Of a stretch of DNA of 32,000 nt, positions 561 to 31,351 are shown in pieces. A program made the position numbers and the translations under genes. How positions within the stretch are numbered: position 1 is the stretch's first letter; each line of letters starts with the position of its first letter. The notes below the pieces were generated by a model, which saw nothing but the letters and a program-made list of their open reading frames with translations, did no database searches and was not told where the DNA came from. The DNA is taken from positions 6,382 through 38,381 of the forward strand of contig JAWXTY010000017.1 of the NCBI GenBank assembly GCA_044433115.1, given 5' to 3'. The stretch is from Opitutales bacterium. Lineage in GTDB: Bacteria > Verrucomicrobiota > Verrucomicrobiia > Opitutales > Intestinicryptomonadaceae.

Positions 561-643
561 GGTGTGCCGAGTATGGCAATTAGCTAAGAGGCGAAAGTCC
601 TTAATGGAGGTTAGGGGCAAACTGCCCTTGCCTAAAATCTTTC

Positions 644-1123
644 TTAAATTTTACTAAGAAAAGATATAACGTCTTCGAATTTTTTGGCGTTATTGCTGTC
701 TGCTTCGACTAGGGATTTATGGGCTTCTAGCATAGCAGGCTTAGAAGAGGGGAGGGAGTCTAGGAAATTAGAGGGTTGAGCTTTTTCTTGGGGTTTTGTT
801 TCTATTTTAGTAATTTTGTCGATGCCGAGGTTTTGGACAACTTCGAGGTTACGTTCTTCGAGGTTAGTTAAAGATACGCAATCGAAAGAGCCATTTATCG
901 CCTTAAGTTTTATAGCGAGCTTGGCTATAATACCTAAAAATGTACTGTCTAGTCCAGTACATTCTTTAAGGTCGATGATTACATTTTTATATTTTGCTCT
1001 AATAATAGTGTCAAAAAATTCAGACACGCCCATACAGTTAAGGTAGCTAGCTCTGCCTTTGATGACGAGCTGAGCTTCCTTATCTTGGGTGTGGACTAAA
1101 TATTTTGTACTATCTTGAGCCAT
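644..1123 (-). CDS. STAS-domain protein (RsbV/SpoIIAA-like anti-sigma-factor antagonist) with a ~50-aa C-terminal extension
   Basis: 159 aa. The STAS-like core is VIIDLKECTGLDSTFLGII, in which the D-S of the GLDSTFLG motif sits where the phosphorylatable Ser of RsbV/SpoIIAA (iDSsGlg) lies. It starts 30 nt downstream of acnA on the same strand. Confidence 0.7.
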   Translation of the reverse strand: MAQDSTKYLVHTQDKEAQLVIKGRASYLNCMGVSEFFDTIIRAKYKNVIIDLKECTGLDSTFLGIIAKLAIKLKAINGSFDCVSLTNLEERNLEVVQNLGIDKITKIETKPQEKAQPSNFLDSLPSSKPAMLEAHKSLVEADSNNAKKFEDVISFLSKI

Positions 1124-1153
1124 TTTGTGTAATTATAATTATTAAGCTGATTA

Positions 1154-3793
1154 TTAAGCTAATATTTTGTCTAATACGTAAGGAAGGATACCGCCTGCTT
1201 GGTAGTATTCGATTTCCATAGGAGTATCTATACGTAAAAGTATGTCGACGTATTCAACACTTTCGTCAGCTCTTTCTATTTTAAGTTTAGCAGGGGCAGC
1301 AACTTCGATACCATTTGCTAACTCTATAGAGAACTTTTCTGTGCCATTTAGTGCTAGAGTATCTGCGTCAACGTCTCCTATAAATTCAAAAGGAAGGATA
1401 CCCATACCAACTAGGTTGCTTCTGTGTATTCTTTCGTAAGATTTTGCAATAACAGCTCTAACTCCCAACATAGAAGTACCTTTAGCAGCCCAGTCTCTTG
1501 AGCTACCCATACCATAGTCTCTGCCAGAGAAGATTATTAAGCCTTCGTCTTTGCTTGCGTATGATTGAGCTGCGTCGTAGATTAGAACGTCGTCGCCAGT
1601 GCCGTACATTTTAGTGTAGCCACCTTCACGTGGGGCAACGATTTTGTTTTTAATTCTAATATTTGCAAAAGTGCCACGAGACATAATTCTATCGTTGCCT
1701 CTTCTTGAGCCATAAGTATTGAAGTCTTTAACAGCTAAGCCCTTTTCACCCAAGAATTTAGCAGCTGCACTATCGAGAGATATAGCCCCTGCAGGAGAGA
1801 TGTGGTCAGTTGTTACGCTATCGCCGAATATCGCCAATGCACGCAAAGAGCCAAGTGTACGTTTCGCAGGGTCTGGCTTTTCAAAGAAAGGAGCTTCTTG
1901 AATGTAAGTACTATCTAAGTTCCAGTCGAATACAGGAGAGTTTTGGCACTCAACTTCTTGCCATTGCTTAGGTCCTAGCATATTTGAATATTGAGCCTTG
2001 AAGAACTCAGATTTTAGCCCCTTGTTCATCGCTTCTTGGATTTCAGCGTCAGTAGGCATAATATCCTTTAAGTACACTGCTTTACCACATTTTGTAGTTC
2101 CTATAGCTTCCTTTTCAAAATCTATATTTACTTTGCCAGCCAATGCAAATGCTACTACAAATGGAGGCGACATTAAGTAATTTGACTTAATTAGAGCGTG
2201 AACTCTCGCTTCAAAGTTTCTATTGCCAGAAAGAACACTAGCACAAACAAGGTTTTTGTCTTTAACAACCTTAGTGATTTCTTCGTCTATAGGACCAGAG
2301 TTACCAATACAAGTTGCACAGCCATATCCAGCTAAATTGAAACCAAGCTTGTCAAAATATTCTTGTAGACCTGCTTCTTTTAGGTAATCGCTAACAACTC
2401 TTGAACCAGGCGCTAGAGTAGTTTTAACGTATGCAGGAACTTCTAAGCCAAACTCGCAAGCCTTTTTCGCCAACAAGCCTGCACTTATTAATACAGAAGG
2501 GTTAGATGTATTTGTGCAACTGGTAATTGCTGCAATTAAGATAGAGCCATCGCCAATTTCGCCCTTAGCTGTAGCAGTTTTTTCTGAAGTAGCTTCAGGG
2601 AAAGACTCTGCAAATGCAGCCTTTGCTTGGAATAAATCTATTTTATCTTGAGGGCGTTTTGGACCCGAAATTGATGGGCTTATTTCGCTCAAATCTACTT
2701 CTAATAAAGTAGTATATTCGCAATCTTGAGCCTTAGGCATACCATATAAGCCTTGAGCCTTGTAGTAATCTTTAGCCAATTCAACTAACTTTTCGTCTCT
2801 GCCAGTTAGCTTCATATAGTCCATAGTTTGCTCGTCTATAGGGAAGTAGCCCATAGTTGCACCATATTCAGGAGCCATATTTGCAACAGTTGCCCTATCT
2901 GCAAGAGATAGATTTTTAGCCCCCTCGCCAATATATTCAACAAATTTACCCACTACCTTTTGTTCTCTCAAAAGCTTAGTCATATGTAAAGCTAAGTCTG
3001 TTGCGTTTGTGCCTTCTGGAAGTTTACCCTTTAGGTTTACGCCCACAACTTCAGGTACTTTGAAATATATAGGTTGACCAAGCATACCAGCTTCAGCCTC
3101 AATACCACCTACGCCCCAAGCGACAACGCCCAAGCCATTAATCATAGTAGTGTGTGAGTCTGTGCCAACTAGAGTGTCTGGATATAAAATATTTTTGCCA
3201 TTTTCTTCTTTTTCAAATACTAGCTTTGCCAAATATTCCAAATTAACTTGGTGGCAAATACCTATAGAAGGAGCTACCACTGAAAATGTATTAAATGCTT
3301 GCTGACCCCACTTTAAAAACTCGTAACGCTCTTGATTTCTTGAAAATTCCATATCCAAGTTTTTAGTATAAGAGTCAGATTTTCCAAAAGCGTCCATTTG
3401 AACAGAGTGGTCTATAACCAAGTCTACAGGTACTAATGGTTCAACCAACTCAGGGTTCTTGCCTCTACGCTTTGCCTCAGACCTCATTGCAGCTAAGTCC
3501 ACAACTAGAGGCACACCAGTTAAGTCTTGCAAGATAATTCTTGAAACCACAAAAGGAATTTCAAAGTCGCCAGTGTCTTTTGCATTATAGCTAGCCAAGT
3601 TATGCACGTCCTGCTCGCTTGCTAAACCATTGAAATACGCCCTTAGCACACTTTCTAAGACAACCCTAATTGAAACAGGTAATCTATGTAAATTAGGATA
3701 AATCTCTCCTAGCTTTGCCAAGCTGTATACAAAAGAGCTTTTGCCCGCATTCTCAGTTTTTAGTTCTACTAAACAATCCTTAATATTACTCAT
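1154..3793 (-). CDS. acnA: Aconitate hydratase A
   Basis: 879 aa with full-length aconitase A architecture. Typical blocks include ILQDLTGVP, VGTDSHTTM, TSCTNTSNP, GCATCIGNSG, SGNRNFEAR and the swivel-domain DHISPAG. Confidence 0.95.
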   Translation of the reverse strand: MSNIKDCLVELKTENAGKSSFVYSLAKLGEIYPNLHRLPVSIRVVLESVLRAYFNGLASEQDVHNLASYNAKDTGDFEIPFVVSRIILQDLTGVPLVVDLAAMRSEAKRRGKNPELVEPLVPVDLVIDHSVQMDAFGKSDSYTKNLDMEFSRNQERYEFLKWGQQAFNTFSVVAPSIGICHQVNLEYLAKLVFEKEENGKNILYPDTLVGTDSHTTMINGLGVVAWGVGGIEAEAGMLGQPIYFKVPEVVGVNLKGKLPEGTNATDLALHMTKLLREQKVVGKFVEYIGEGAKNLSLADRATVANMAPEYGATMGYFPIDEQTMDYMKLTGRDEKLVELAKDYYKAQGLYGMPKAQDCEYTTLLEVDLSEISPSISGPKRPQDKIDLFQAKAAFAESFPEATSEKTATAKGEIGDGSILIAAITSCTNTSNPSVLISAGLLAKKACEFGLEVPAYVKTTLAPGSRVVSDYLKEAGLQEYFDKLGFNLAGYGCATCIGNSGPIDEEITKVVKDKNLVCASVLSGNRNFEARVHALIKSNYLMSPPFVVAFALAGKVNIDFEKEAIGTTKCGKAVYLKDIMPTDAEIQEAMNKGLKSEFFKAQYSNMLGPKQWQEVECQNSPVFDWNLDSTYIQEAPFFEKPDPAKRTLGSLRALAIFGDSVTTDHISPAGAISLDSAAAKFLGEKGLAVKDFNTYGSRRGNDRIMSRGTFANIRIKNKIVAPREGGYTKMYGTGDDVLIYDAAQSYASKDEGLIIFSGRDYGMGSSRDWAAKGTSMLGVRAVIAKSYERIHRSNLVGMGILPFEFIGDVDADTLALNGTEKFSIELANGIEVAAPAKLKIERADESVEYVDILLRIDTPMEIEYYQAGGILPYVLDKILA

Positions 3794-3910: not shown

Positions 3911-4020
3911 GAAAATATTTAAATTATTGCAAAAAAATGTTGAAAAATTGTCATATCTCAAAATAATACTAGCTTAATTATATTATTGGCGACTTTAAAA
4001 AATTAGTTTCTAAAAAGATA

Positions 4021-4239
4021 AGAAAGAACACACTTGCTCTTTTTTGCCTATTTTATTCTAATTTCTTCTGTTTTCTCCTTAGATAACGCTGTTATCCTCC
4101 TTGAAAACATAAAAAATTATCTTTAAAATAATCTAAAAAATAGCTAAGTGCTAATTTTTTAAAATCACCTTATTAAATATGTAGCTACAAAAAGAAAAGC
4201 TACACTACAACTTGGATTATTTAACCTAGGAATAAAAAA
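4021..4239 (+). repeat. Intergenic promoter/leader cassette, copy A (upstream of yebC)
   Basis: Collinear with the reverse complement of 29508-29680 and with 25361-25585. Exact 24-nt (4031-4054) and 35-nt (4125-4159) identities are shared with copy B. Confidence 0.8.
4101..4129 (+). promoter_or_regulatory. Candidate sigma70-type promoter inside cassette A (TTGAAA-17 nt-TAAAAT) pointing at yebC
   Basis: TTGAAA is at 4101-4106, the spacer is 17 nt, and TAAAAT is at 4124-4129. Equivalent hexamers sit at the same cassette positions in copy B (29570-29598, minus) and copy C (25436-25464, plus). Confidence 0.4.
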
Positions 4240-4985: not shown

Positions 4986-6377
4986 ATGGGAAAAACTTTA
5001 TTTGAAAAAGTTTGGCAAAAGCACGCTGTTAAAGAATTAGCAGATGGCTCTACCCAACTATTTATAGGAACTCACCTCCTACACGAGGTTACTAGCCCTC
5101 AAGCATTTGGTATGCTTCGCTCTTTAGGCTTAAAGGTGCGTTATCCAAATCGCTCTTTTGCAACAGTAGACCACATTATCCCTACAACTGACACAGCTGA
5201 ACCTTATTCAGATAAGTTCGCATACGAAATGTTAGAGCATATCAGAAAGAATTGTGCCGATAATGGAATTAAGTTCTTTGACGTAAATGGTGGGCAAGGC
5301 GTAATCCACATCGTTATGCCAGAACAAGGTATCATTCACCCTGGTATGACTGTTGCTTGTGGAGATAGCCACACTGCAACTCACGGAGCTTTTGGGGCTG
5401 TTGCCTTTGGTATAGGCACAAGCCAAGTTCGTAATGTTCTTGCTACTCAAACTTTGTCTTTCAAAAAACTTAAGGTTAGACGTATTGAAGTTAATGGCAA
5501 GCTCAGCGATGGCGTTTATGCAAAGGACGTAGCTCTATATATTATTAGAAAGCTCGGCGTAAATGGTGGTATAGGCTATGCTTACGAATTTGCAGGCGAG
5601 GTATTCGACGATATGGATATGGAAGGCAGAATGACTGTTTGTAATATGGCTATCGAAGGTGGGGCAAGAGTTGGATACATAAACCCAGACCAAAAAACTT
5701 TCGACTACCTAAAGGGCAGACCTTATGCTCCGAAATCTGAAGATTGGGACAAAAACGTTCAAGAGTGGAAGGCAATCGCCTCTGACGCTGACGCAGTTTA
5801 TGACGACCTAATTAAGTACGACGCAAAGGATATACTCCCTACTCTAACTTGGGGCGTAAACCCTTCTCAAGCAATTTTCATAAACGAAAATATCCCTAAT
5901 CCTGAAGATATTTCTGACCCAGTAGAAAAGAAAGAAGCTCTCGAAGCCCTCTCTTATATGAAGTTAGAAGCAGGAAGCCCTATAGAAAAAACTCCTATCA
6001 ATGTTGCTTTCATAGGCTCTTGCACTAATGGCAGAATTAGCGACTTCGAAGAAGCTGCAAAATACCTTAAAGGCAAAAAAGTTGCACCTAATGTTAGAGC
6101 ATTAGCTGTCCCTGGCTCTCAAATCGTAAAAGAAATTGCAGAGGCAAAAGGCTTAGACAAGATATTTATCGAAGCTGGCTTCGAATGGAGAAACGCAGGT
6201 TGCTCTATGTGCTTGGCAATGAATGCAGACAAACTTAAAGGCGACGAACTTTGTGCTTCTAGCTCAAACAGAAACTTTAAAGGCAGACAAGGTAGCCCAA
6301 CTGGCAGAACTGTACTTATGAGCCCTAGAATGGTAGCGTCTTCTGCTATAGCCGGCTTCATCACTTATGGGGCGTAA
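4986..6377 (+). CDS. leuC: 3-isopropylmalate dehydratase large subunit
   Basis: 463 aa. [36 protein letters not shown] and [11 protein letters not shown] are LeuC/aconitase-family Fe-S ligand blocks. The start lies 2 nt after the yebC stop. Confidence 0.9.
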
Positions 6378-6545
6378 TATTGCCCTTGATGCTCCGTTTT
6401 GAGGATTTTTGAGACTCTCACGTACAATAAGTACGCTTCGACCCTCAAAAATCCTCAAATACTCGCCTGAAGGGCAATCTTAGGCCCCATCAAAAATTTT
6501 GCTTTCGCAAATTTTTGGTCGGAAAAACTGATTGTGTTTTGGGCA
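6369..6545. repeat. Nested-hairpin intergenic element, copy 1 (long imperfect hairpin 6369-6488, small A/T-flanked hairpin 6491-6517, then a tail)
   Basis: The basal arms GGGGCGTAATATTGCCCTT / AAGGGCAATCTTAGGCCCC, middle arms GAGGATTTTTGAG / CTCAAAAATCCTC and apical CGTAC-AATAA-GTACG form a nested hairpin. The leuC stop codon (6375-6377) lies inside the basal stem. Confidence 0.85.
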
Positions 6546-6700
6546 GTTTACTTTAGGGATTTTTTGGACTCTCACGTACAATAAGTACGCTTCGACCCTC
6601 AAAAATTCTCAAATACTCGCCTGAAGGGCAATCTTAGGCCCCATCAAAAATTTTGCTATAGGCAAATTTTTGCTTGGGAAAGCTGATTGCGTTTTGGGTG
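6546..6700. repeat. Nested-hairpin intergenic element, copy 2 (left basal arm missing or degenerate)
   Basis: The core ACTCTCACGTACAATAAGTACGCTTCGACCCTCAAAAAT recurs 154 nt after copy 1 (6414 vs 6568). The right arm GAAGGGCAATCTTAGGCCCC and the small hairpin CAAAAATTTTGC...GCAAATTTTTG are retained. Confidence 0.8.
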
Positions 6701-6732: not shown

Positions 6733-6945
6733 ATGCCAACTTATGATTATCACTGTTCTAGCTGTAATGAGACTATGGAAATTTTCCATTCTATGACTCA
6801 GCCCGACGAAACTATATGCCCTAAGTGCAAAAAACCAACGCTTAAAAAAGCAGTTGGCAATGGCTCTGGCGTTATATTTCACGGAAGTGGCTACTACTGC
6901 ACAGATTATAAGAAAAAATCTGCAGGCACAAAAGCTAAAAAATAA
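6733..6945 (+). CDS. FmdB/CxxC_CxxC_SSSS family zinc-ribbon protein
   Basis: 70 aa. MPTYDYHCSSCNETMEIF...ETICPKCKKPTLKK carries the two CxxC pairs and the N-terminal MP.YdY.C..C signature of the family. Confidence 0.8.
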   Translation: MPTYDYHCSSCNETMEIFHSMTQPDETICPKCKKPTLKKAVGNGSGVIFHGSGYYCTDYKKKSAGTKAKK

Positions 6946-7093
6946 GGGGCTTAAAATTGCCCTTGATGCTCCGTTTCGGGATTTTTTTGAACTCTCACGT
7001 ACAATAAGTACGCTTCGACCCCAAAAAAATCCTAAATACTCGCCTGAAGGGCAATTTTAAGCCCCTTCAAAAATTTGCTAAGGCAAATTTTTT
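6946..7093. repeat. Nested-hairpin intergenic element, copy 3 (perfect 19-bp basal stem)
   Basis: GGGGCTTAAAATTGCCCTT (6946-6964) is the exact reverse complement of AAGGGCAATTTTAAGCCCC (7047-7065). It is followed by CAAAAATTTGC-TAAG-GCAAATTTTTT (7068-7093). It starts on the nucleotide after the zinc-ribbon gene stop. Confidence 0.85.
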
Positions 7094-7449
7094 AGTAGTC
7101 TTTAAGAATTATTGTCTACTTAAGGCTTTAAAAAGCTCCACCCTTTGCACCCTCAAGTGCAAAGCCTAAAATTTTAAATAAAAAAATGTAATTAACTTGA
7201 AAAATATCCTTATTTTTCAATGGATGGGGATTTTGTTGATTTATCTTTAATGCTTGCATTAATTTAAATCAACAAAATGAAGAGTGGGCAACCGACTAGC
7301 ACCCCTAAGAAAACACTCTAATATACAAACGCCAACAAAAACTATGGTATCAAGTGCCTCACTTGTTTCAGGTTTTAAGGGCTGAAACCAAGCCCTTAAT
7401 GGGGTTTGGGGCAAAGCCCCAATATCTCTAAATCTTTCTTGATCTTTTA

Positions 7450-8733: not shown

Positions 8734-11700
8734 TTATTTTAAAAATGAGTTTATAAAGCTGTCTGCTGCACCCTTTGCAGAATTTCCAAGAAGCTCGCCT
8801 GCATTTGTTTCTACAGCTTCGAGCGTTCCAAAAATTAGAAAAGGCTTGGTTTTGTGTAGCTTTTCTTTAGTGAGATATTTTTCGTAAATATTTGCCTTTT
8901 TGAATAAATCTGAAATATCGGCATTTTGAGTGTAGGCAGAAATTGCCACCTTTAAGTCCTGCTCATTGATAGGCAAGCCACTTTGATAGGCTATCCTGCC
9001 TAAGCCTATAATAGAGATTTCTCTGTTGTCTATTCTGAGATTTTCTAGTTTTATGTCGAGCGAGCTATCTCTGATTATGCTTGCAGAAAAGTTAGAGTAT
9101 TCAAAATTCTTAAATGTCTCTAATAGCGTATTCGCCGCATTTAGCTCCTTTGCTTTTTTACCTAAAAATCCCCCTGCAATATTTATCAAAGATGACGCCA
9201 TATCGGCAGCTGCCCCCATTGAGCTGTTAGGGTCTATAATGCTTATTGTGCCTCTTCCTATATTGTTTAGGCTTGCTTTGCCTTGTATATTTTCAACTAA
9301 GAGCTTCGCATCTTTAGCCTTGGAATTTAGATTTAAGTCTATCGCCAAAGTTCCATTTATCATAGAATATCCACTGTTGGCATTGTAGCTTAACCTGCTT
9401 GCGTCAATTTTAGGAATATTTATACTAAACTCTTTTAGCTCGTAAGGCTCTGCTTGTTTTTTGTCGAAAATTAGGGAAGATTTAACATTGCCCTTTTCTG
9501 AGCTTGCGAGGGTAAATTGAGTTTTTTCTATACTTACTGAGTCCTCATCTAAAAGTATATTGGAGTTTAACTTTGTGATAATTTTTGCCCCAGATAACTC
9601 TATGTCAGTAAGTTTGAGTTGCAATCTTAGGTCATAGCCAATATCCCAAAATGCTTTTGTGTTTGTGGTAATTTCTTTTGTGGTTGTCTTGATGGGCAAT
9701 GGGCTAGACTTTGCATTTGTTGCCTTTTGGGCGAACTGCATAGCCCTTTCTTTACGCTCTTGTACACTAGGTTTTGCGTCTGTTTGTTTCTTGTATGTAT
9801 TAGAAATACTTGGGGTTGTTATCTCTTCTAAATGAACTGATTTGCTTGTAGCTTTTGCAAGAAAAATCAAATCATCTAAAATTAGATTTATAGATTTAAG
9901 CTCGGCATTTATCTTGTTTCCACTAAGCTTTGACTTGAGGCTATAATCGCTCTTTCCCTGTGGGCTAGTTATATTTAATAGCCCTGTAAAGTTTTTTTCT
10001 GGAGTGGATAAATCAATTTTAGTGTCGAGGTCTATAATTGGAATGTAGCCATTTTCGCTCTTGAGTTTTAGATTAGTTATCTTAGTTCTAGTGCTGAAAA
10101 TATTGTCCTTAAAATCTAAATCAATTTTGGCAAAGGCACTTTGAATATTGTTATAATTTTCGAGTATACCAACCTTCATTAGGGCAGGTATGTATAGGGA
10201 AATTTTGGTGTTCGCCTTTTCTAATTCTCCTCTATTTGTCTCTACATTTATATAGCTAGTTAAGATTTCTGTTCCCTTATATTCAAGCTTGAATTTGTCT
10301 ATATAAGTCTTTGTTTTGTCGCCTGTTTTCTTGTAATCGAAAGAGGCACTTGGCGTTATTCCAGAAAAAATCTCTTGATTATTGTAGCTATAATTCCAAT
10401 TTTCTAGGATTGCAAGTCCCTTTATATTAAGTTCTTCTGGGCTTTTAATTATGTCGACTTCGCCAGATATAGAAGTTGCGTCTATATCTTTTACATAAGC
10501 TTTTAGGGTGCTAAAAGGTAGCGAGTTTGCAATGAGCTTTGCCTTGAAGTTTTTGTTTTGTAGCTCGTAATTTTTTAGAATTAGCTTTTCGCTTAGCTTA
10601 GCTTGCAAAAGGGTGAAATCGCCATTGTGCATATTTAGCTTTAAGTTATCAATTTCTAGTTTTTCGCCAATTTTTTCTATGTCGAGATTTAGGTCTAAGG
10701 TAGAATTTTTAACTTTTTCTAAATTATCTATATGCACTTGAGCTGTACTTAGAAAAATCATAACGCTTCCAGTAGCTGAAATACTTGCAATGCTCTTTTC
10801 TTCGCTACTTTTTAGAGAAACTTTTGCCTTTATTTCTTCATCTTTAGTCCTTATTAAACGCAAGTCTAAATCTGCAAGAAAATTCTTGTTTAGGTCTATG
10901 CTAGAATGTAGTTTAGCTCCTGTAAAAACATCACGAATTAGTATAGCTTCGTTCTTGAGTATTTCTAGTGCTTTAAAATAAATTTCTTCTTTTGAGTCTA
11001 TTATTAAAGCCTTATTTTCTGCGTCTAAAGATAGGCTTAAGTGGGCGTTTATCTTGTTGTCGCTAAAGTCGTAGTCCGACAAATAGCTACGCAAAATGTC
11101 GTAGGGGATATTGTCTATATAGAGGCTTGCAAAGTTTTTAAGATTTTCACTATCAGCAAGTTGATTGTTTTCAATCTCTAGGGGCTTTTCTAGCTTTAGT
11201 TGTGCTAGGATTTCGCCTTCTTTGAACAAATCGGCATCTAAGTTTTTAATGCTAAGGCTATTGCTATCCTTTTTTAGTTCGGCGTTTAGCTTTAAATTAG
11301 AGTTGCTTAAAAAGTTTAATTCTTCTATGGGGCAAATTAAATTGCCTGAGCTTGCGTCGACTCTTAGTATTGCATCTACTTCTTCAAAAAAGTTCTTTGA
11401 TTTTATGTCTACAAAGCTATCTATGTCGAGAGCAAAGGCTGAACTTTTTTGAAATATTTTAGCTAAATCTTCTTTGGAAATTTTGCAAGAACTTAAAATA
11501 CTTAAATCCTTGAAATCTTGGCTGTATTCCAATTTTAACTTTAGCAATTCTTGCCTATTAGAGCTTGCAAGAAGTTCTAAATTTCTGATATTTTCGCTTG
11601 CCTTAACTTGACTAATTAGCTTTAGGTCTTGGTTAAGGAGACCTTCTGAGGCTATGATTTCTAGCCTTAAATTGCTAAGGTCTTTAGGGCTTTTTAGTTT

Positions 11701-12276
11701 TAGGTCTTGGGCGTTTAATTCTAGCTTTGCAAGCTTTTCTGTTTTATTTTCTAAGGAAATTTGAGCTTTTATGTTTTTGATATTTATATTAAAAGGCTTT
11801 TTTGTATTCTTCTTGATTTCCTCTTTAGGAGCTTCTAGCTTAGGGCTTTGCGTGTCGCCTTTTTGCTCGATTTGTGCTACTGTAGGAGCTTGATTATTTT
11901 CTTCTGGCACAAAAGCTTCTGCAAATCTTTTTCTAGGTTTTTCTTTTTTTGCTATATCTATTTTTGCATTTTCAATTTGAATATCTTCTATATTTATTTC
12001 ATTGAAAAGCAGGCTAAAGAGGCTTGAATATTGAATAGAAACGAGGGGGGCTTCTATGTCAAAGTTGTCGTTTGTGATTTTAAGATTAGTTATATTTGCA
12101 GAGCTTAAATTTGCCTTAAAGCTATCTACTTTAACGTTTTCGCCAAAATTTTCGCTCAAAGTTTTTTGTATAAATTCATTCTGCACCTCCTCATTTGTTA
12201 AATAAAAGTATGCAGCAGAAAGGCTAATCGCACTGAGGGCGAATAGGCATAGGCTAATTTTCAAAATAGTTTTCAT
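8734..12276 (-). CDS. Giant envelope protein, AsmA/TamB-like (N-terminal signal anchor with a long repetitive beta-rich body)
   Basis: 1180 aa. It has a single N-terminal hydrophobic anchor (ILKISLCLFALSAISLSAAYFYL), then a K/N/S/L/I-rich repetitive sequence. The C-terminal stretch FSASIIRDSSLDIKLENLRIDNREISIIGLGRIAY resembles the AsmA-like C-terminal region. The family assignment comes from pattern recognition only. Confidence 0.45.
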   Translation of the reverse strand: MKTILKISLCLFALSAISLSAAYFYLTNEEVQNEFIQKTLSENFGENVKVDSFKANLSSANITNLKITNDNFDIEAPLVSIQYSSLFSLLFNEINIEDIQIENAKIDIAKKEKPRKRFAEAFVPEENNQAPTVAQIEQKGDTQSPKLEAPKEEIKKNTKKPFNINIKNIKAQISLENKTEKLAKLELNAQDLKLKSPKDLSNLRLEIIASEGLLNQDLKLISQVKASENIRNLELLASSNRQELLKLKLEYSQDFKDLSILSSCKISKEDLAKIFQKSSAFALDIDSFVDIKSKNFFEEVDAILRVDASSGNLICPIEELNFLSNSNLKLNAELKKDSNSLSIKNLDADLFKEGEILAQLKLEKPLEIENNQLADSENLKNFASLYIDNIPYDILRSYLSDYDFSDNKINAHLSLSLDAENKALIIDSKEEIYFKALEILKNEAILIRDVFTGAKLHSSIDLNKNFLADLDLRLIRTKDEEIKAKVSLKSSEEKSIASISATGSVMIFLSTAQVHIDNLEKVKNSTLDLNLDIEKIGEKLEIDNLKLNMHNGDFTLLQAKLSEKLILKNYELQNKNFKAKLIANSLPFSTLKAYVKDIDATSISGEVDIIKSPEELNIKGLAILENWNYSYNNQEIFSGITPSASFDYKKTGDKTKTYIDKFKLEYKGTEILTSYINVETNRGELEKANTKISLYIPALMKVGILENYNNIQSAFAKIDLDFKDNIFSTRTKITNLKLKSENGYIPIIDLDTKIDLSTPEKNFTGLLNITSPQGKSDYSLKSKLSGNKINAELKSINLILDDLIFLAKATSKSVHLEEITTPSISNTYKKQTDAKPSVQERKERAMQFAQKATNAKSSPLPIKTTTKEITTNTKAFWDIGYDLRLQLKLTDIELSGAKIITKLNSNILLDEDSVSIEKTQFTLASSEKGNVKSSLIFDKKQAEPYELKEFSINIPKIDASRLSYNANSGYSMINGTLAIDLNLNSKAKDAKLLVENIQGKASLNNIGRGTISIIDPNSSMGAAADMASSLINIAGGFLGKKAKELNAANTLLETFKNFEYSNFSASIIRDSSLDIKLENLRIDNREISIIGLGRIAYQSGLPINEQDLKVAISAYTQNADISDLFKKANIYEKYLTKEKLHKTKPFLIFGTLEAVETNAGELLGNSAKGAADSFINSFLK

Positions 12277-24379: not shown

Positions 24380-25345
24380 TTATAAATTTGAAATTTTAAT
24401 TAGCTTTTCCACTCTATTTTCGACTTCTTGCATACCAAGCTTTTCGAGTTGCCTACAAGAGAAATCTTCCACAGTCATTGAGGCAGTCGCACTTGCATAA
24501 TACATTGCTCTTTTCATAGTCTCAAAATCAGTGTTGCCCTTCGACGCTATGTATCCAAGCATTGCACCTGCATAAGAGTCGCCAGCTCCAGTTGGGTCTT
24601 TTAGCTCTAGCACTGGGTAGGAAGGGGCAATGAACATATCGTCTTTACTAAATAGAACAGAGCCGTGTTCGCCCTTTTTAATTAGTACGCTCTTTGCTCC
24701 CATTTCCACAATCTTCTTTGCTGCAATGAAGATATTTTCTTCGCCAGTTAAAAGCTCAGACTCAGAGTCATTAAGGATAAATAAGTCTACCTTAGGCATA
24801 ACATTTAGCAAGTCAGGCTTTGCGATATTTATCCACAAGTCCATTGTATCTAGGATTACAAATTCAGGGGAATTTAGTTGCTCTAAGCAAGAATTTTGCA
24901 ATGCAGGCGATATATTTGCGAGCAATACATACTTAGAAGCCTTTAGACTATCTGGCAAAATTGGATTGAAATGCTCGAATACATTTAGCTGCACTTCGAG
25001 AGTCTCACGCCTATTGAAATTGTCGAGATACTTGCCACTCCAAAAAAAGGTGTCGCCTGAATTATCCACTTGCAAGGCACTTAGGTCTATGTCTCTACTT
25101 TTTAGCAAATTCATATCCTTTTCATTAAAGTCTTTACCTACAACGCCAAGCATCGCAGCTTGAGTGAAATAGGAACAAGCCAAGCTTGCATAGCTTGCAG
25201 AACCTCCTAAAATGTTATCTTCTTTTGCGTAGCGAGTTTCGATATTATCATACGCCACTGAACCTAAAACTAATACTTTTTCTTTCATTATCTCTATTGT
25301 GGGGGCTTTAAAAAATTGGTTTTTTATAGGAAGCAAAAATTTCAT
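24380..25345 (-). CDS. PfkB-family carbohydrate kinase
   Basis: It carries the ribokinase-like motifs GGSASYAS and DPTGAGDSYAGAMLGY. The 321-aa ORF has a poorly conserved 19-aa leader. The Met at 25288 (MKEKVLVLGS) is a plausible true start. It ends 5 nt before proA. Confidence 0.85.
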   Translation of the reverse strand: MKFLLPIKNQFFKAPTIEIMKEKVLVLGSVAYDNIETRYAKEDNILGGSASYASLACSYFTQAAMLGVVGKDFNEKDMNLLKSRDIDLSALQVDNSGDTFFWSGKYLDNFNRRETLEVQLNVFEHFNPILPDSLKASKYVLLANISPALQNSCLEQLNSPEFVILDTMDLWINIAKPDLLNVMPKVDLFILNDSESELLTGEENIFIAAKKIVEMGAKSVLIKKGEHGSVLFSKDDMFIAPSYPVLELKDPTGAGDSYAGAMLGYIASKGNTDFETMKRAMYYASATASMTVEDFSCRQLEKLGMQEVENRVEKLIKISNL

Positions 25346-25360
25346 TTTTGCATTAAAATA

Positions 25361-25585
25361 AGCTATAATTGCTCTTTTTTATTTATTTTTGCTTGAATTT
25401 CCTTGTTTTTACGTTAAATAATTGCATTATTCGCCTTGAAAAACAAGAAAATTACGCTAAAAATAAACTAAAAAATAACTAATTGCCAATTTTTAAAAGC
25501 TCCCAATAAACTATACATTTCATAAAAATAGAAAAGCAAAAAATACACTTGCCCTTTAGTTTAGGATTTAATAGCGTTATTTTCT
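25361..25585 (+). repeat. Intergenic promoter/leader cassette, copy C (upstream of the histidine kinase)
   Basis: Collinear with copies A and B but more diverged. It has TTGCTCTTTTTT, the palindrome AATAATTGCATTATT (25417-25431), TTGAAA (25436-25441), the A-rich hexamer around 25458-25464, CTAAAAAATAACTAATTGCCAATTTTTAAAAGCTCCC (25468-25504) and AAAAAATACACTTGCC (25538-25553). Confidence 0.7.
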
Positions 25586-26710
25586 ATGCAAGGTTCAGGT
25601 AAAAAAGGCAAATTATTGCGTCTATTAAAGTTAAACAAACGTTTGGCTGACGAAGTTTTGGAATTTCAAACTATCTTCAATTCTCTTGAAGAGTCTGTAA
25701 TTGTATTCAATAAAGAGGGCAAAATCTCTTTTGCAAACAACTCTAGCAAAAAGCTACTTGGCATACCTGAAATATACGAAAATTACCCCCTATATAAACT
25801 CATTCCAAGCCTTGAGCTTGATATAGAAAATTTCCAAGGGCGAGTTCTAAGACGTGAATTTCAAGTTAGCTACCCTGAAGATAGATACTTAAAGTCATAT
25901 TTACTCAGCTTTAAGCAAAGCGAGGCTACCTTCGAATACGAGAAGCTTTGGGTTATAATACTTAGCGACACAACTAAGGAAAGAATTGTGGCTGAAGAAC
26001 TTATAGAAAACGAAAAAATCAATTCCATACTCGATTTAGCCTCAGGTATTGCCCACGAAATAGGTAACCCCCTAAACTCTATGAGTATACACTTGCAACT
26101 AGTCAAGCGTAGTTTAGCGAAGATAGACGACGAAAAGTTGCGAGGGCAAATAGAAAATTCTATAGAGATTTGCAAGAGCGAAACGAAGCGTCTCGATGGC
26201 ATTGTTAAAAATTTCCTAAAGGCTATACGCCCCCAAAAGGCTATATTAGTAGAAATGAACGCAATTAGCCCACTAATGGAAGTCTTGAAAACTTTGGAAA
26301 TTCAACTTTCAAAACAAGAAATTTCTATAAACATTCAAAGCGAAAATATCCCCCCTGCAATCTTGGGCGACTTTACTTTGTTGCAACAGCTCTACTTTAA
26401 TATAATTAAAAACGCTATCGAGGCAATAGGCTCAAAGGGTAATATAGATATTAAAATTACTAGCGACGACGAATTTTTAAATCTTGCCTTTATCGACAAT
26501 GGCTGTGGTATGTCGCAAGAGAATATTAGTAGGATTTTCGAGCCTTACTACACAAATAAAGAAGAGGGTAATGGCTTAGGTATGATGCTGATAGAGAATA
26601 TAGTTAAGTCCCACAATGGCAAAATTGCCCTCGAGAGCCAAGAGGGAATCGGCACTATGTTAACTATATCCCTTCGCCGCAGCTCCCCAGTCCTCAAACG
26701 CCTAGCTTAG
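25586..26710 (+). CDS. Cytoplasmic PAS-domain sensor histidine kinase (NtrB-like), with no adjacent response regulator
   Basis: 374 aa with no TM segment. H-box HEIGNPLNSM, N-box FNIIKNAIEA, G1 DNGCGM and G2 GNGLGM are present. The N-terminal ~120 aa are PAS-like. Confidence 0.85.
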   Translation: MQGSGKKGKLLRLLKLNKRLADEVLEFQTIFNSLEESVIVFNKEGKISFANNSSKKLLGIPEIYENYPLYKLIPSLELDIENFQGRVLRREFQVSYPEDRYLKSYLLSFKQSEATFEYEKLWVIILSDTTKERIVAEELIENEKINSILDLASGIAHEIGNPLNSMSIHLQLVKRSLAKIDDEKLRGQIENSIEICKSETKRLDGIVKNFLKAIRPQKAILVEMNAISPLMEVLKTLEIQLSKQEISINIQSENIPPAILGDFTLLQQLYFNIIKNAIEAIGSKGNIDIKITSDDEFLNLAFIDNGCGMSQENISRIFEPYYTNKEEGNGLGMMLIENIVKSHNGKIALESQEGIGTMLTISLRRSSPVLKRLA

Positions 26711-26721
26711 TTTATTTTTAT

Positions 26722-27693
26722 TTAGCTTTTGCGTCTTGTTAATGCTTTTTCAAGAGCCAAGCCTATTTTATCCAATTTCTTTTGAATTTTGGGTGTAACA
26801 TCTATTTTTATTAAGCTTTCTTTTGGCATTTTCTTTAAATTAAAAAGTTTTTTGGCGTTTTGGGAGAAGATGGCTTTGTGGAATTTTGTGGGGATATTTC
26901 TTTGGGCTTCTTCTTTGAGTTGATTGAAATCTGCTTTGAGGGATATTTTGGGGTAGAGAGCTAAAGAGTAATCTGTGCCAAAGCATAGATTTTTGAGTTG
27001 ATTGAAATCGAGATTTGCCCAGTCGCTTTCTTTATATAATAGGGGAAAGGCAGCACAATCGAGATATATGTTTTCAGCAAAATCGCTCGCTCTAAATGCT
27101 CTACCTCCTGCAAGGTGTGAGAAGATGAACTTTTGTTTTGGGAACTTTTTGGCAAGGGCAAATAGTGCCTCATTATCTGTAATTATCTTGCCCTTATAGT
27201 CCTTTCCAAGCTCGTCGCTAAGGTGTATACATATAGGAAGCTCCTCAGCTTGGCAGATTTTGACTATCTCGCAAAAGCCATCGCTTAGAAAGTCAAAGCC
27301 TTGCACTTTATCGCATAATTCGCCAACTGCTACAAAGCCTAAGCCCCTTGCTTGCTTTAGAAATGCTATGCTTTCTTCTACAAATTTAGGGCATATAGTT
27401 GCCATAGGCAAAATTCTATCAGGGTAAGACTTTGCGAAGTCGAGAGCAGTTTTGTTGAAATATTCGCAGGCTTCGACGCTTTGATAATACGCCCCGTTTA
27501 TCACAGCCTTGTCTATATTTGCCCTATCCATTTGAGCAATAAATTCTTCTTTGCTAACTAAGTCTTGCAGGCTCTTTTTCTTTTGTGGAAAGAGCAAATC
27601 AAGCCAATAAGTCTCGCCAAAATCCCTTAGAACTTGCTCTAAATTATCTCTTGGAAAGTAATGCGTGTGTATGTCTATAATCTCGCTAGGCAT
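26722..27693 (-). CDS. Amidohydrolase-2 family metal-dependent hydrolase (TIM barrel)
   Basis: 323 aa. The N-terminal IIDIHTHYFP metal-binding HxH motif and a later HL..G/D pattern are typical of PF04909-type amidohydrolases. Confidence 0.65.
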   Translation of the reverse strand: MPSEIIDIHTHYFPRDNLEQVLRDFGETYWLDLLFPQKKKSLQDLVSKEEFIAQMDRANIDKAVINGAYYQSVEACEYFNKTALDFAKSYPDRILPMATICPKFVEESIAFLKQARGLGFVAVGELCDKVQGFDFLSDGFCEIVKICQAEELPICIHLSDELGKDYKGKIITDNEALFALAKKFPKQKFIFSHLAGGRAFRASDFAENIYLDCAAFPLLYKESDWANLDFNQLKNLCFGTDYSLALYPKISLKADFNQLKEEAQRNIPTKFHKAIFSQNAKKLFNLKKMPKESLIKIDVTPKIQKKLDKIGLALEKALTRRKS

Positions 27694-28589
27694 ATATAAA
27701 AAAGCACAAGGCTTAGAGCTATTCTATACCAAGCAAAAGGAGCTAAGCCCCACTTGGACAAGAAGTATACGAAAAATTTAACGCATATAAGAGCAAATAT
27801 GAAAGATACTAAAATTCCCCAAATTGCACTTTGCAAAGAAATTGCATCTAGCATAGCCTCATAGTCAGTTAAAATCTTAAAGGAACTCGCTGCCCCAAGG
27901 GTAATTAGCCCAAGCAAAAAGCTAAATTGAGCTGCCCCCTTAGGGTTTAGCCCTATGACATAGCCCCCTAAAATAGTCATCATAGACCTACTTGCCCCAG
28001 GGATAAGGGCAAAGCATTGCAAAAAGCCCACAATCAAGCTTTGCTTTATGCTAAGTTTAGAAAGGCTTATATCTGCCTTTTGCTTTGCCTCTTTTTCGTA
28101 TTTAGCCCTTACAAATAGCATAAGCAAGCCTCCGACAAACAAGCTGATTGCCACAGGCAAAACGCCAAAGAAGAAGCTTTCTATGAGCTTATATAGGCTT
28201 AGCCCAATGACTGCCGCAGGCAAAAAGGCTACAAATATATTTCTAGCTAAATAAAGCCCATCTTTGTCTTTGCCAAGCACTCCTAAAATTATGCTCTTTA
28301 GGCTTTTCCAGTATAGGAAAATTACAGCAAAAATCGCCCCTATCTGTATTACAACTGCATAAATATCTGCAGAAGCCTTTAGCTTTTCGTCATCATTTAG
28401 CCCCAAAGCCTCATTTGCCAATATTAAATGCCCAGTCGAGGACACTGGCAAATACTCAGTAAGCCCCTCAACTATACCCAAAACAGTTGCGTCGTAAGTA
28501 TCTATTTGAAGTTTTGGCTCGCTCTTTTCGCCAGCAAAAGCACTTAGGCTTAGGCAACAAAAGATAAGTATCGCTAGGATTTTTTTCAT
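27675..28589 (-). CDS. uppP: Undecaprenyl-diphosphate phosphatase (BacA/UppP) with an N-terminal signal-like extension
   Basis: 304 aa. GIVEGLTEYLPVSSTGHLIL and PGASRSMMTILGG are the two UppP signature blocks. About 30 extra N-terminal residues look like a signal peptide (MKKILAILIFCCLSLSAFA). Confidence 0.9.
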   Translation of the reverse strand: MKKILAILIFCCLSLSAFAGEKSEPKLQIDTYDATVLGIVEGLTEYLPVSSTGHLILANEALGLNDDEKLKASADIYAVVIQIGAIFAVIFLYWKSLKSIILGVLGKDKDGLYLARNIFVAFLPAAVIGLSLYKLIESFFFGVLPVAISLFVGGLLMLFVRAKYEKEAKQKADISLSKLSIKQSLIVGFLQCFALIPGASRSMMTILGGYVIGLNPKGAAQFSFLLGLITLGAASSFKILTDYEAMLDAISLQSAIWGILVSFIFALICVKFFVYFLSKWGLAPFAWYRIALSLVLFYICLARL

Positions 28590-28600
28590 AACACACTTGC

Positions 28601-29197
28601 CTAATAAATTTTTCTTGCGTCTAAGGCACTTTTTATAGTTGAAGAATCTGCAAATAGCAATGCACTACCACTAGGCAAGCCAAAGCCTATTCTTGTTAAA
28701 TTCACTTGAGAGCCATCTACTATGCACTCTTGTATATAGTGGCAAGTCGCTTCTGCCTCTATATCATTAGACAAAGCAAGGATTAGCTCGCTAATTTCCC
28801 CAGAGTCGACTAGAGCCTTGAGCTTTTCCATTTTTAAATTTTCAGGGCTAATACGTTTCATAGGCGAAAGTTTGCCCCCTAATACAAAATATCTGCCCTT
28901 GAACGCTCCAGATTTTTCTATAGACATCAAGTCCAAGACGCTTTCTACCACGCATATAGAGTGTTGCTCTCTCGAAGAGTCTGCACAGATATTGCAAAGT
29001 TCTCCACGCTTTGCCATTGCTCCACAAAATTCGCACTCGCCAATAGCCACTTGAGCCTTAGCGAGGCAATCTTGCAAGTCTTTAGCCAAACTTGGCTCTT
29101 CTAAAACCAAGTTTAGGGCTATACGCTCAGCTGCCTTGGGTCCAAGAGAGGGTAGCTTGCGTAGAATTTTCTTTAGATTGTCAAATTCCTGACTCAC
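28601..29197 (-). CDS. recR: Recombination protein RecR
   Basis: 198 aa with the LPSLGPKAAERIA helix-hairpin-helix, a C4 zinc finger (CEFCG...CNIC) and a Toprim domain. Confidence 0.95.
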   Translation of the reverse strand: MSQEFDNLKKILRKLPSLGPKAAERIALNLVLEEPSLAKDLQDCLAKAQVAIGECEFCGAMAKRGELCNICADSSREQHSICVVESVLDLMSIEKSGAFKGRYFVLGGKLSPMKRISPENLKMEKLKALVDSGEISELILALSNDIEAEATCHYIQECIVDGSQVNLTRIGFGLPSGSALLFADSSTIKSALDARKIY

Positions 29198-29198
29198 C

Positions 29199-29507
29199 TT
29201 AGAATAGTCCAGGTAGGCTAAAACCTCCTGTTACTGTAGACATTTTTTCGTCGCTTAGAGCCTTTGCCTTTACTGCCGCCTCATTGATAGCTGACAATAT
29301 AGTAGACTCTACAGTTGCAGCGTCTTCCTTTAAAAATTCAGGATCTAACTTCAAGCTTTTCAAAGCTCCGTGTCCATTTACATTAACTACAACAGCTCCG
29401 CCGCCACTAGAAACTTCAACAATTTCTGTTTCTAAGCCCGATTGAACTTCTTCCATAACTTTTTGCATCTTTTGTGCTTGCTTTAATAGTTTTCCTACTC
29501 CTGCCAT
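29199..29507 (-). CDS. ybaB: YbaB/EbfC family nucleoid-associated protein
   Basis: 102 aa. It shows LLKQAQKMQKVMEEVQ, a GGGAVVV...NG block and a C-terminal GGFSLPGLF. It lies directly upstream of recR, as is usual. Confidence 0.9.
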   Translation of the reverse strand: MAGVGKLLKQAQKMQKVMEEVQSGLETEIVEVSSGGGAVVVNVNGHGALKSLKLDPEFLKEDAATVESTILSAINEAAVKAKALSDEKMSTVTGGFSLPGLF

Positions 29508-29680
29508 TTTATTTCTTTCTTTTATTTATGGTGGTTTCTAAAAATTAGCACTTAGCTATTTTTTAGATTATTTTGAGGTTGATTTTTTATGTTTTTAAGG
29601 AGGATAATGAATTATCTAACGCAAAAACAGAGAAAATCAAAGCAAAATAGGCAAAAAAGAGCAAGTGTATTTTTCTTATT
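29508..29680 (-). repeat. Intergenic promoter/leader cassette, copy B (upstream of ybaB-recR-uppP)
   Basis: The reverse complement aligns with 4021-4169, with exact identities of 24 nt (29644-29667) and 35 nt (29540-29574). The minus-strand TTAAAA (29593-29598) -17 nt- CAAAAT (29570-29575) points at ybaB. Confidence 0.8.
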
Positions 29681-29691
29681 CTATTTTAAAA

Positions 29692-31256: not shown

Positions 31257-31329
31257 GTGGGCAAAGTGGGACATTGCGTGGCACACAGTGGGACATTTTG
31301 TCTCAGTATATTGTGCAAAAAGTGGGACA
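31257..31329 (+). promoter_or_regulatory. Array of GTGGGACA-type direct repeats upstream of dnaK (candidate operator array)
   Basis: The repeats are GTGGGCA at 31257, GTGGGACA at 31266, GTGGCACA at 31278, GTGGGACA at 31288 and GTGGGACA at 31322. The first four are spaced 9-12 nt apart. The array lies 90-160 nt upstream of the dnaK ATG. Confidence 0.4.
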
Positions 31330-31351
31330 CTGAAATTGGGCATAAGTTTAA

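Follow-up and report, generated by a model that had tools for sequence, protein, structure and literature searches.

Why should the spacers that lead into yebC, into ybaB and into a histidine kinase gene of one bacterium share a single sequence of 181-204 bp? The locus in question is a 32,000-nt stretch of an Opitutales bacterium (Verrucomicrobiota; assembly GCA_044433115.1, contig JAWXTY010000017.1, positions 6,382 to 38,381), which we analyzed as a whole and refer to as the window. An earlier note on this DNA described the repeated sequence as a promoter/leader cassette and left two explanations standing: a mobile element resembling a MITE (a miniature transposable element with inverted repeats), or a regulatory leader that defines a regulon. 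We find that the copies are most probably insertions of a nonautonomous, noncoding, lineage-specific MITE-like transposable element that forms a new family, a reading to which we assign a probability of roughly 80%. We assign it to a new family because it is small, noncoding and AT-rich, carries terminal repeats, has flanking direct repeats in two of three copies, is dispersed as separate copies, and is missing from each of these sites in relatives. The three copies in the window are as follows.

3988-4169, forward strand: copy A, 182 bp, between the divergently transcribed aconitase gene and yebC (nhmmer E 8e-51)
29710-29530, reverse strand: copy B, 181 bp, between the gene for a SpoIIE-type phosphatase and ybaB (nhmmer E 9e-53)
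25301-25504, forward strand: copy C, 204 bp, in the divergent spacer between pfkB and a histidine kinase (HK) gene (nhmmer E 1e-47)

Homology among the three regions, as first proposed, is firmly established. A core hidden Markov model (HMM) finds them with nhmmer E-values of 3e-43 (29676-29527, reverse strand), 4e-41 (4021-4172) and 1e-38 (25358-25507), and adding the outer arms to the model yields the values listed above (1e-47 to 9e-53). Mean column identity in the three-way alignment is 74%, with global identities of 77% for A/B, 66% for A/C and 68% for B/C (the B and C slices carried a few flanking bases); copy C is the most diverged and holds an extra 22-nt mini-hairpin within its bulge (below). 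Copies A and B share an exact block of 35 nt (4125-4159, the reverse complement of 29540-29574), as previously reported, and another that is 25 nt long (4030-4054, the reverse complement of 29644-29668), not 24. The alignment and these exact blocks rule out low-complexity A/T matching, which the earlier note had named as the result that would overturn its claim. A fourth full copy, with a different flank, lies in metagenome contig MDSP01025657.1 (L014, 192-338).

The anatomy of the unit is that of a long palindrome. Its terminal inverted repeats are 19 bp long (consensus GGnGrCTTywAAwAATTrG) and 17/19 complementary in each of A, B and C, and the outermost bases of the copies read GGCGAC, GGTGGC and GGGGGC. 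After the left terminal repeat, and on the left side only, comes an unpaired bulge of 23-45 nt, followed by a 120-nt inner stem-loop (ACACTTGCTCTTTTTT...AAAAAATAGCTAAGTG) that is paired almost up to its tip, so that the unit in its entirety amounts to a single long, imperfect hairpin. The same follows from the core HMM: in every copy it has a second match, on the other strand (E 5e-8 to 1e-5). The extent first given to the repeat was thus right for the core; it missed the left ~40-65 nt (terminal repeat and bulge) and took in native DNA downstream. The missed left arm is reverse complementary to the bases that directly follow the CACC/TCCC with which the earlier note closed its list of parts. 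The parts of the element are listed here.

3988-4006, forward strand: left terminal inverted repeat of copy A, GGCGACTTTAAAAAATTAG
4151-4169, forward strand: right terminal inverted repeat of copy A, CTAATTTTTTAAAATCACC
4030-4150, forward strand: inner long hairpin of copy A, ACACTTGCTC...AGCTAAGTG (RNA fold -26.7 kcal/mol, z = -7.7; covariation)
29710-29692 and 29548-29530, reverse strand: terminal repeats of copy B, GGTGGCTTCTAATAATTAG and CTAATTTTTAGAAACCACC
25301-25319 and 25486-25504, forward strand: terminal repeats of copy C, GGGGGCTTTAAAAAATTGG and CCAATTTTTAAAAGCTCCC
End sequence of the element, expected likewise on any autonomous partner: GGTGGCTTCTAAWAATTAG

Base composition is AT-rich (~25% GC), and stops interrupt all six frames of the three units (181-204 bp), leaving no long open reading frame (ORF). 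Folded as DNA, the whole unit has z-scores of -4.9 to -5.5 against shuffled sequences (copy A, -5.4); the core folded as RNA gives -2.3 to -7.7 over both strands, with A and B at -6.3 and -7.7 on the strand of the downstream gene. The small palindrome AAAAAATAGC-TAAGT-GCTAATTTTTT, which the earlier note placed near a predicted transcription start, proves to be just the place where the inner stem meets the right terminal repeat. Copy C and L014 (TAAC...GCCA) do not keep it, whereas they retain the long-range pairs. A strong fold of this kind could also belong to a small RNA gene, in which case the transcript of each copy would begin in the left arm with its TACACT, run through the hairpin and reach a T-run after the stem. 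The A-rich tract and TACACT at the left, the stable 120-nt hairpin that follows, the CTAATTTTT(T) directly after stem closure and the covariation of the stem would suit such a gene. We nonetheless find it hardly credible: a terminator scan is empty at this position, Rfam returns no family at the gathering threshold and chance-level matches only at E <= 10, the outer inverted repeats and the insertion behavior are left unexplained, and the reverse strand folds equally well or better, as expected of a DNA palindrome.

Evidence for insertion comes from sites without the element. We recovered four related Opitutales contigs (L096-L099) through the SpoIIE protein and a fifth (L100, NCBI GCA_028748565.1) through PfkB. 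SpoIIE and aconitase of L096 are 57% and 75% identical to the window proteins, and L097, L098 and L099 have the G+C content of the window (38-39%); L100 is a much closer relative (PfkB 89%, HK 80% and aldehyde dehydrogenase 81% identical). Presence across close relatives was a check proposed in the earlier note: the element is missing at all three orthologous sites in L096-L100, and HMMs together with a covariance model of the hairpin find no copy in ~188 kb of Opitutales relatives.

At the site of copy B, L096 has aconitase-STAS-SpoIIE-ybaB-recR-uppP-amidohydrolase in a single direction, and L097-L099 have the same order. The SpoIIE-ybaB spacer measures 184 nt in the window, 181 nt of which are copy B; L096 has 25 nt at this place, and L097-L099 have 2 nt. 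Copy B also supplies the end of the SpoIIE reading frame.

29692-29709, reverse strand: last five SpoIIE codons and stop (VASNN*), contained in copy B's left terminal repeat

The C terminus thus reads ...IKHKVASNN* in the window, ...IKHKTKE* in L097/L098 and ...IKHTN* in L096. Excising copy B with one ATAA in silico would leave ATT AAA CAT AAA TAA followed by AAGAAAGAAATAAA-ATG, a sensible stop and spacer that would align with CATAAAACAAAGGAATAAAAATG of the relatives. The yebC/aconitase spacer is 446 nt in the window vs. 171-183 nt in L097-L099, and both flanks of copy A align with the relatives' spacer (toward yebC, ...AGCTTTTGTA..ATATTT...; toward aconitase, TTCA(A)CATTTT...TGCAATA). In the window, 297 nt separate pfkB from HK. 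The same divergent pair of L100 is 80 nt apart; this shorter spacer runs colinear with the sequence that flanks copy C, anchored at TATACAT, and no full element lies in it. The longest PfkB ORF (start 25345; Logan gene calls, P0121, 321 aa) extends 19 codons into copy C (25289-25345, reverse strand). Judged by the 302-aa orthologue P0122 and the Pfam match, the PfkB start is 25288 and the longer call is an annotation artefact caused by the insertion.

These empty sites bear directly on the other explanation offered originally, a shared cis-regulatory leader or operator (an RNA or a protein-binding palindrome) that would place yebC, ybaB and the kinase in one regulon. All three copies do face the downstream gene in the same way, and they share strong structure and the conserved block CTAAAAAATA(G/A)CTAA(G/T)TGC(T/C)AATTTTT. 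This explanation fails, however: five related contigs lack the element at the orthologous positions, and copy B, which interrupts the SpoIIE-ybaB junction, overlaps the stop codon of SpoIIE and overwrites it. Copy C, moreover, has its left end 12 nt from the start codon of pfkB on its other side, nothing in Rfam beyond chance matches it even at E <= 10, and the local palindrome is not kept in C or L014. We therefore regard a common leader as largely refuted and most improbable. The link to small DNA-binding or nucleoid proteins (YebC, YbaB) pointed out in the earlier note looks coincidental, the other neighbors being aconitase, PfkB kinase, a histidine kinase and a SpoIIE-type phosphatase. No IHF consensus was found in the element when checked by eye.

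Short direct repeats flank two of the three copies, as would be left by a transposase that duplicates its target.

3983-3987: TTATT, left of copy A, putative target-site duplication (read from the sequence)
4170-4174: TTATT, right of copy A, partner repeat (read from the sequence)
29715-29711 and 29530-29526: ATAA/CATAA on both sides of copy B

By a rough estimate, each such short AT-rich match at the flanks of A and B has a chance probability of ~1-4%. Prokaryotic MITEs have been defined as elements of <500 bp with terminal repeats of 4-30 bp and direct repeats in younger copies (PMC10969869). They are typically AT-rich, lie in AT-rich intergenic DNA and yield stable hairpin transcripts, and several families carry sigma70-like promoters (PMC10969869). 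The present unit is 181-204 bp long without a transposase gene, has 19-bp terminal repeats, is dispersed, and has filled vs. empty sites. The terminal inverted repeats, the short flanking repeats and the element-free sites for all three copies support the mobile, MITE-like explanation of the earlier note.

Searches beyond the window returned little. Used as an exact pattern, the conserved right-end block has 0 matches in 185,579 species genomes and 0 in viral contigs; in JGI metagenomes it has 5 matches, of which only L014 is a true copy. The translated open frame of the element, searched against 5.8 billion proteins to fish for spurious ORFs, found no match, and BLAST against plasmids and phages gave no relevant match. 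Across 80 yebC loci of other genomes there is no element, and synteny is confined to Opitutales. A covariance model run over 220 kb (window and relatives) recovers the four known copies and no others. Logan contigs, assembled from short reads of the same organism, break off within the copies, as expected for a repeat. As proof of many additional copies these contig ends hold only in part: the 35-nt block common to A and B suffices for the breaks there, and the one in copy C (25408/25413) could be due to a further copy or to the palindrome itself. In L014, a second partial right-end module directly follows the first (332-376; nhmmer E between 9e-4 and 0.03 in different searches), and the stretch 400-1850 is pyrimidine-rich, of low complexity and unlike the window; the contig may be chimeric.

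Among the four copies, 15/61 hairpin pairs have changed on both sides and yet remain complementary. Pairing extends to 94.7% of cells over the full hairpin, and the observed values were reached by 0/500 shuffles; sliding the registers by 1-3 columns lowers pairing to 45-58%. The terminal-repeat helix is 91% paired, with 5/19 pairs changed on both sides. Compensatory examples include TTAG/CTAA in A and B vs. TTGG/CCAA in C, and TA/TA in A vs. CT/AG in B. Double-sided changes occur throughout the hairpin, and the arms therefore coevolve over their whole length, beyond the ends. Possible causes, judged from four sequences, are selection on a single-stranded hairpin, arm-to-arm conversion, or distinct symmetric master copies.

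Such coevolution would be at home in an element that moves as a single-stranded DNA hairpin through an HUH/RAYT-type enzyme (REPIN-like or derived from IS200/IS605), instead of as a DDE cut-and-paste MITE. Complementarity over the entire 180-200 nt, the double-sided pairs and the shuffle result all speak for it, as does the missing target duplication at copy C, and compensatory change has been used in REPINs to argue for selection at the level of the hairpin (PMC3116915). The ends argue otherwise: they are GG...CC inverted repeats, accompanied in two of three copies by short direct repeats, which HUH elements do not make, and they lack the GTAG/CGTC head motifs of REPs (PMC3733652). The unit is also far longer than a REP doublet, and the window contains no RAYT or TnpA gene. 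Movement by such an enzyme thus seems clearly unlikely to us.

Under the MITE reading, the element would depend for its movement on a transposase supplied in trans from another place in the genome, an enzyme that would recognize the terminal repeats and make a 4-5-bp target duplication. Surviving insertions would be those that do not silence neighboring genes. Two routes can be proposed. In the first, the element would provide outward promoter activity, from TTGAAA-17-TAAAAT in the right arm and/or from a -35-like TTGCCA/GTGCTA at the right end combined with the AT-rich flank; in the second, it would be read through as a long RNA hairpin. The copies lie in AT-rich intergenic DNA 12-80 nt off start codons, and the asymmetric right end points at the nearer downstream gene (yebC, ybaB, HK) in three of three copies, a pattern that survival of nonsilencing insertions by either route would explain; the orientation is informative for copy B only. 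Copy B separates ybaB-recR-uppP from SpoIIE and copy C abuts pfkB, which implies transcription through the hairpin or from inside it.

4101-4129, forward strand: sigma70-like pair TTGAAA-17-TAAAAT in the right arm of copy A, facing yebC, 10/12 matches, candidate outward promoter

It is plausible that the element carries promoter activity. A site homologous to that of copy A occurs in C at 25436-25464 with 9/12 matches, and in C and L014 the scan also picks up the -35-like TTGCCA at the very right end, with an 18-nt spacer to an AT-rich hexamer in the flank. A -35-like end of an insertion element joined to a hexamer in the flank is a classic route to hybrid promoters. The statement that each copy carries a sigma70-like -35/-10 pair accordingly stands for A and weakly for C, and falls for B and L014, which lie below the scan threshold. 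Promoters are on record for Correia elements and several other MITEs, as is RNase III processing of cotranscribed Correia hairpins (PMC2649163, PMC10969869).

Several observations weigh against the insertion of a MITE with promoter activity. No target duplication is recognizable at the flanks of copy C, and the ATAA at copy B is a putative duplication that may already have been repeated there, a distinction that relatives whose SpoIIE is 51-57% identical do not allow us to prove. The window holds neither a transposase gene nor an autonomous element with the same ends, and the known copies are four only. Full-length complementarity is unneeded by a DDE transposase, which reads the ends, and hints at selection on the hairpin as single-stranded DNA or RNA. 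With regard to promoters, the consensus scan does not report the homologous -35/-10 of B (TTAAAA-17-CAAAAT) or that of L014, and counts of promoter-like sites lie within ~1-2 standard deviations of the shuffled mean for AT-rich DNA, so that the promoter reading is suggestive only.

The neighboring genes are as follows.

1154-3793, reverse strand: aconitase gene, beside copy A; yebC-leuC (forward strand) on its other side
24380-25288, reverse strand: PfkB kinase gene, beside copy C
25586-26710, forward strand: PAS histidine kinase gene, beside copy C
29692-31146, reverse strand: SpoIIE/GAF phosphatase gene, beside copy B; then ybaB-recR-uppP-amidohydrolase (reverse strand)

The closest YebC among species-representative genomes is that of Candidatus Merdousia sp. 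(72% identity), with other Opitutales next. The repeat had been said to precede three unrelated operons, which needs qualification: in relatives, yebC-leuC and aconitase-STAS-SpoIIE-ybaB-recR-uppP are adjacent divergent operons. In four relatives (L096-L099) the latter genes, through the amidohydrolase, form one colinear block beside yebC-leuC. The window (644-3793; 26722-31146) has this block broken between STAS and SpoIIE, with the SpoIIE half ~26 kb off, beyond yebC-leuC; STAS ends at 644 and SpoIIE starts at 31146, genes that are contiguous with aconitase in relatives. Just 3' of the STAS stop, at the rearrangement breakpoint, lies the 13-mer TAGCTAATTGCCA (574-586, reverse strand), which equals the right subterminal block of the element (TAACTAATTGCCA in C and L014) at 12/13 positions; it may be a remnant or may be due to chance.

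Part of the element also resembles DNA that belongs to the host. Its left interior is similar to a native motif, AAAAAATACACTTGC, found upstream of HK and SpoIIE, and the motif AAWACACTTGCNCTTT has 4 occurrences in the window vs. 0.5 expected. In A and B it begins the inner-left arm, which accounts for two of these; two more stand alone, 33-45 nt upstream of the starts of HK (25542-25557) and SpoIIE (31201-31186). The sites outside the element are these.

25525-25559, forward strand: native module AAAATAGAAAAGCAAAAAATACACTTGCCCTTTAG, upstream of HK, outside the element and homologous to its bulge and inner-left arm
31225-31206, reverse strand: right-end-like fragment GCAATTTTTAGAAGCCTCCC, followed by the same module at 31205-31166, 20 nt upstream of the SpoIIE start
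4190-4215, forward strand: weaker module copy AAAAGAAAAGCTACACTACAACTTGG, between copy A and the yebC start, with a local alignment through GAAAAGC...TACACT

The HK-upstream site is native DNA because it is present in the element-free L100, where GAAAGAAAAAAATAATACACTTGCTCTTTTTTTATCATTTTG at the orthologous position resembles ~50 nt of the bulge and left arm (nhmmer E 5e-4). By local alignment, the SpoIIE upstream region matches the HK upstream region over ~55 nt; SpoIIE has been parted from aconitase-STAS, and its new upstream region thus consists of element-like pieces. The earlier note held copies A and C to be alignable nearly to the start codon, and this similarity is real, only that it stems from a separate short native motif. 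Either the element interior derived from a native leader or promoter, or the module sites are decayed older insertions. In L097, which is element-free, GCAAAAAAAGACACTTGC occurs at ~283 (reverse strand), ~45 nt upstream of an ATG. This site suggests that the clade may use AAAAAA(T/G)ACACTTGC as a native promoter or leader signal.

Could a native promoter or leader then have been duplicated or recombined without any transposition ("promoter reuse"), the cassette being a copied piece of the HK/pfkB control region? The resemblance of ~50 nt of the left interior to HK-upstream DNA, both in L100 and in the window (25525-25559), would fit, as would the related 55-nt leader found upstream of SpoIIE after the rearrangement, and there are reports of promoters duplicated without a known mobile element (PMC3575422). 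The three full copies, however, have the same sharp ends, marked by inverted repeats, and are set in otherwise colinear spacers. This combination is the signature of transposition, not of ragged segmental duplication, and the module spans only a quarter of the unit, so that copying without transposition is decidedly improbable. A bolder extension of the MITE reading, which we consider rather unlikely, is that the interior was built from the native promoter/leader module (AAAAAATACACTTGC...) and has now spread as a mobile promoter, that its hairpin is under selection as RNA or single-stranded DNA, and that it helped to rewire expression after the aconitase-STAS-SpoIIE-ybaB operon broke up.

Other features of the window concern different sequences. 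A second, unrelated family of palindromic repeats (~150 nt) has three copies that flank a small zinc-ribbon ORF (6733-6945).

6367-6519, 6524-6674 and 6944-7094, forward strand: second repeat family, with ends GGGGCGTAATATTGCCCTT...AAGGGCAATCTTAGGCCCC and then a AAAAATTTTGC-N4-GCAAATTTTT hairpin
31262-31335, reverse strand: three direct repeats (A)TGTCCCACT, in the spacer that separates SpoIIE from the divergent dnaK-side genes (dnaK seen in L095)
7190-7419, forward strand: weak cmscan match to cyanobacterial transfer-messenger RNA (tmRNA), 18.5 bits, E 0.011, against a gathering score of 70
8734-12276, reverse strand: 1180-aa ORF with no Pfam domain at E <= 1e-5

The second family is absent from the relatives' loci, and Logan contigs stop inside its copies; a contig that reaches past the window start ends at AAGGGCGTA upstream of hemC, probably another copy of this family. 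The (A)TGTCCCACT repeats could be an array of regulator binding sites. A reading of AAGTGCTAA near dnaK as CIRCE, the HrcA operator, was dropped, since by eye it amounts to a half-site only. ARAGORN predicts no tmRNA or tRNA anywhere in the window.

Together, these results illustrate MITE insertion cleanly in a lineage of Verrucomicrobiota that is uncultured and associated with the gut or the environment, and for which we found no description of such elements in the literature. The copies have practical consequences: they break short-read assemblies of the host organism exactly at the repeats, and they create annotation errors (a PfkB ORF 19 codons too long and a SpoIIE C terminus encoded by the element). 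Copy B sits in a formerly tight junction upstream of recR and uppP, and their expression must depend on the element, through read-through or an internal promoter. Insight into the origin and maintenance of such palindromic elements could come from the covariation between the arms and from the resemblance to a native leader. Current understanding of MITEs is unchanged, and conceptual novelty is low unless the idea of a mobile native promoter or of a hairpin under selection is borne out.

How does the element compare with known systems? Correia elements of Neisseria (CREE/NEMIS) are ~100-155 bp long, noncoding and bounded by inverted repeats, and mostly lie just upstream of genes, with some over ORF ends (PMC2649163; PMC10969869). 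The accounts given in PMC2649163 and in PMC10969869 (citing PMC3024310) describe promoters at either end of them and RNA hairpins processed by RNase III. The present element is likewise small, noncoding, bounded by inverted repeats and close to gene starts, and in copy B it lies over an ORF end. It differs in its host, Verrucomicrobiota vs. Neisseria, in sequence and composition, which seem unrelated as judged by reading, and in its 19-bp terminal repeats, putative 4-5-bp duplication, whole-length pairing and one-sided bulge. The target duplication of Correia elements is TA.

ERIC/IRU elements of enterobacteria and Yersinia are, like this one, imperfect palindromes over their whole length that lie in intergenic, often cotranscribed regions. 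An ERIC measures 127 bp and is comparatively GC-rich; by description, the present element is set apart at 181-204 bp and ~25% GC. For ERIC/IRU, orientation matters to the neighboring mRNA, according to De Gregorio 2005 (PMC1291288) as cited in PMC3575422. REPINs offer another parallel, a hairpin-forming mobile unit with compensatory changes between its two arms (PMC3116915). They differ in consisting of two short REPs with GTAG/CGTC heads, in making no target duplication and in being linked to RAYTs; neither the ends of the element nor the genes of the window show 20-40-nt REP palindromes, inverted doublets or a RAYT. The mobile promoters and promoter reuse described by Matus-Garcia and co-workers likewise place highly similar upstream regions before unrelated genes of one genome (PMC3575422). 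The carrier in the present case, unlike theirs, is a discrete element bounded by inverted repeats, and its promoter activity is only putative. On the strength of published descriptions, host phylum, length and base composition set the element apart as a family separate from Correia, ERIC and RUP. By analogy, its closest functional counterparts would be Correia elements and ERIC, while its coevolving arms recall REPINs.

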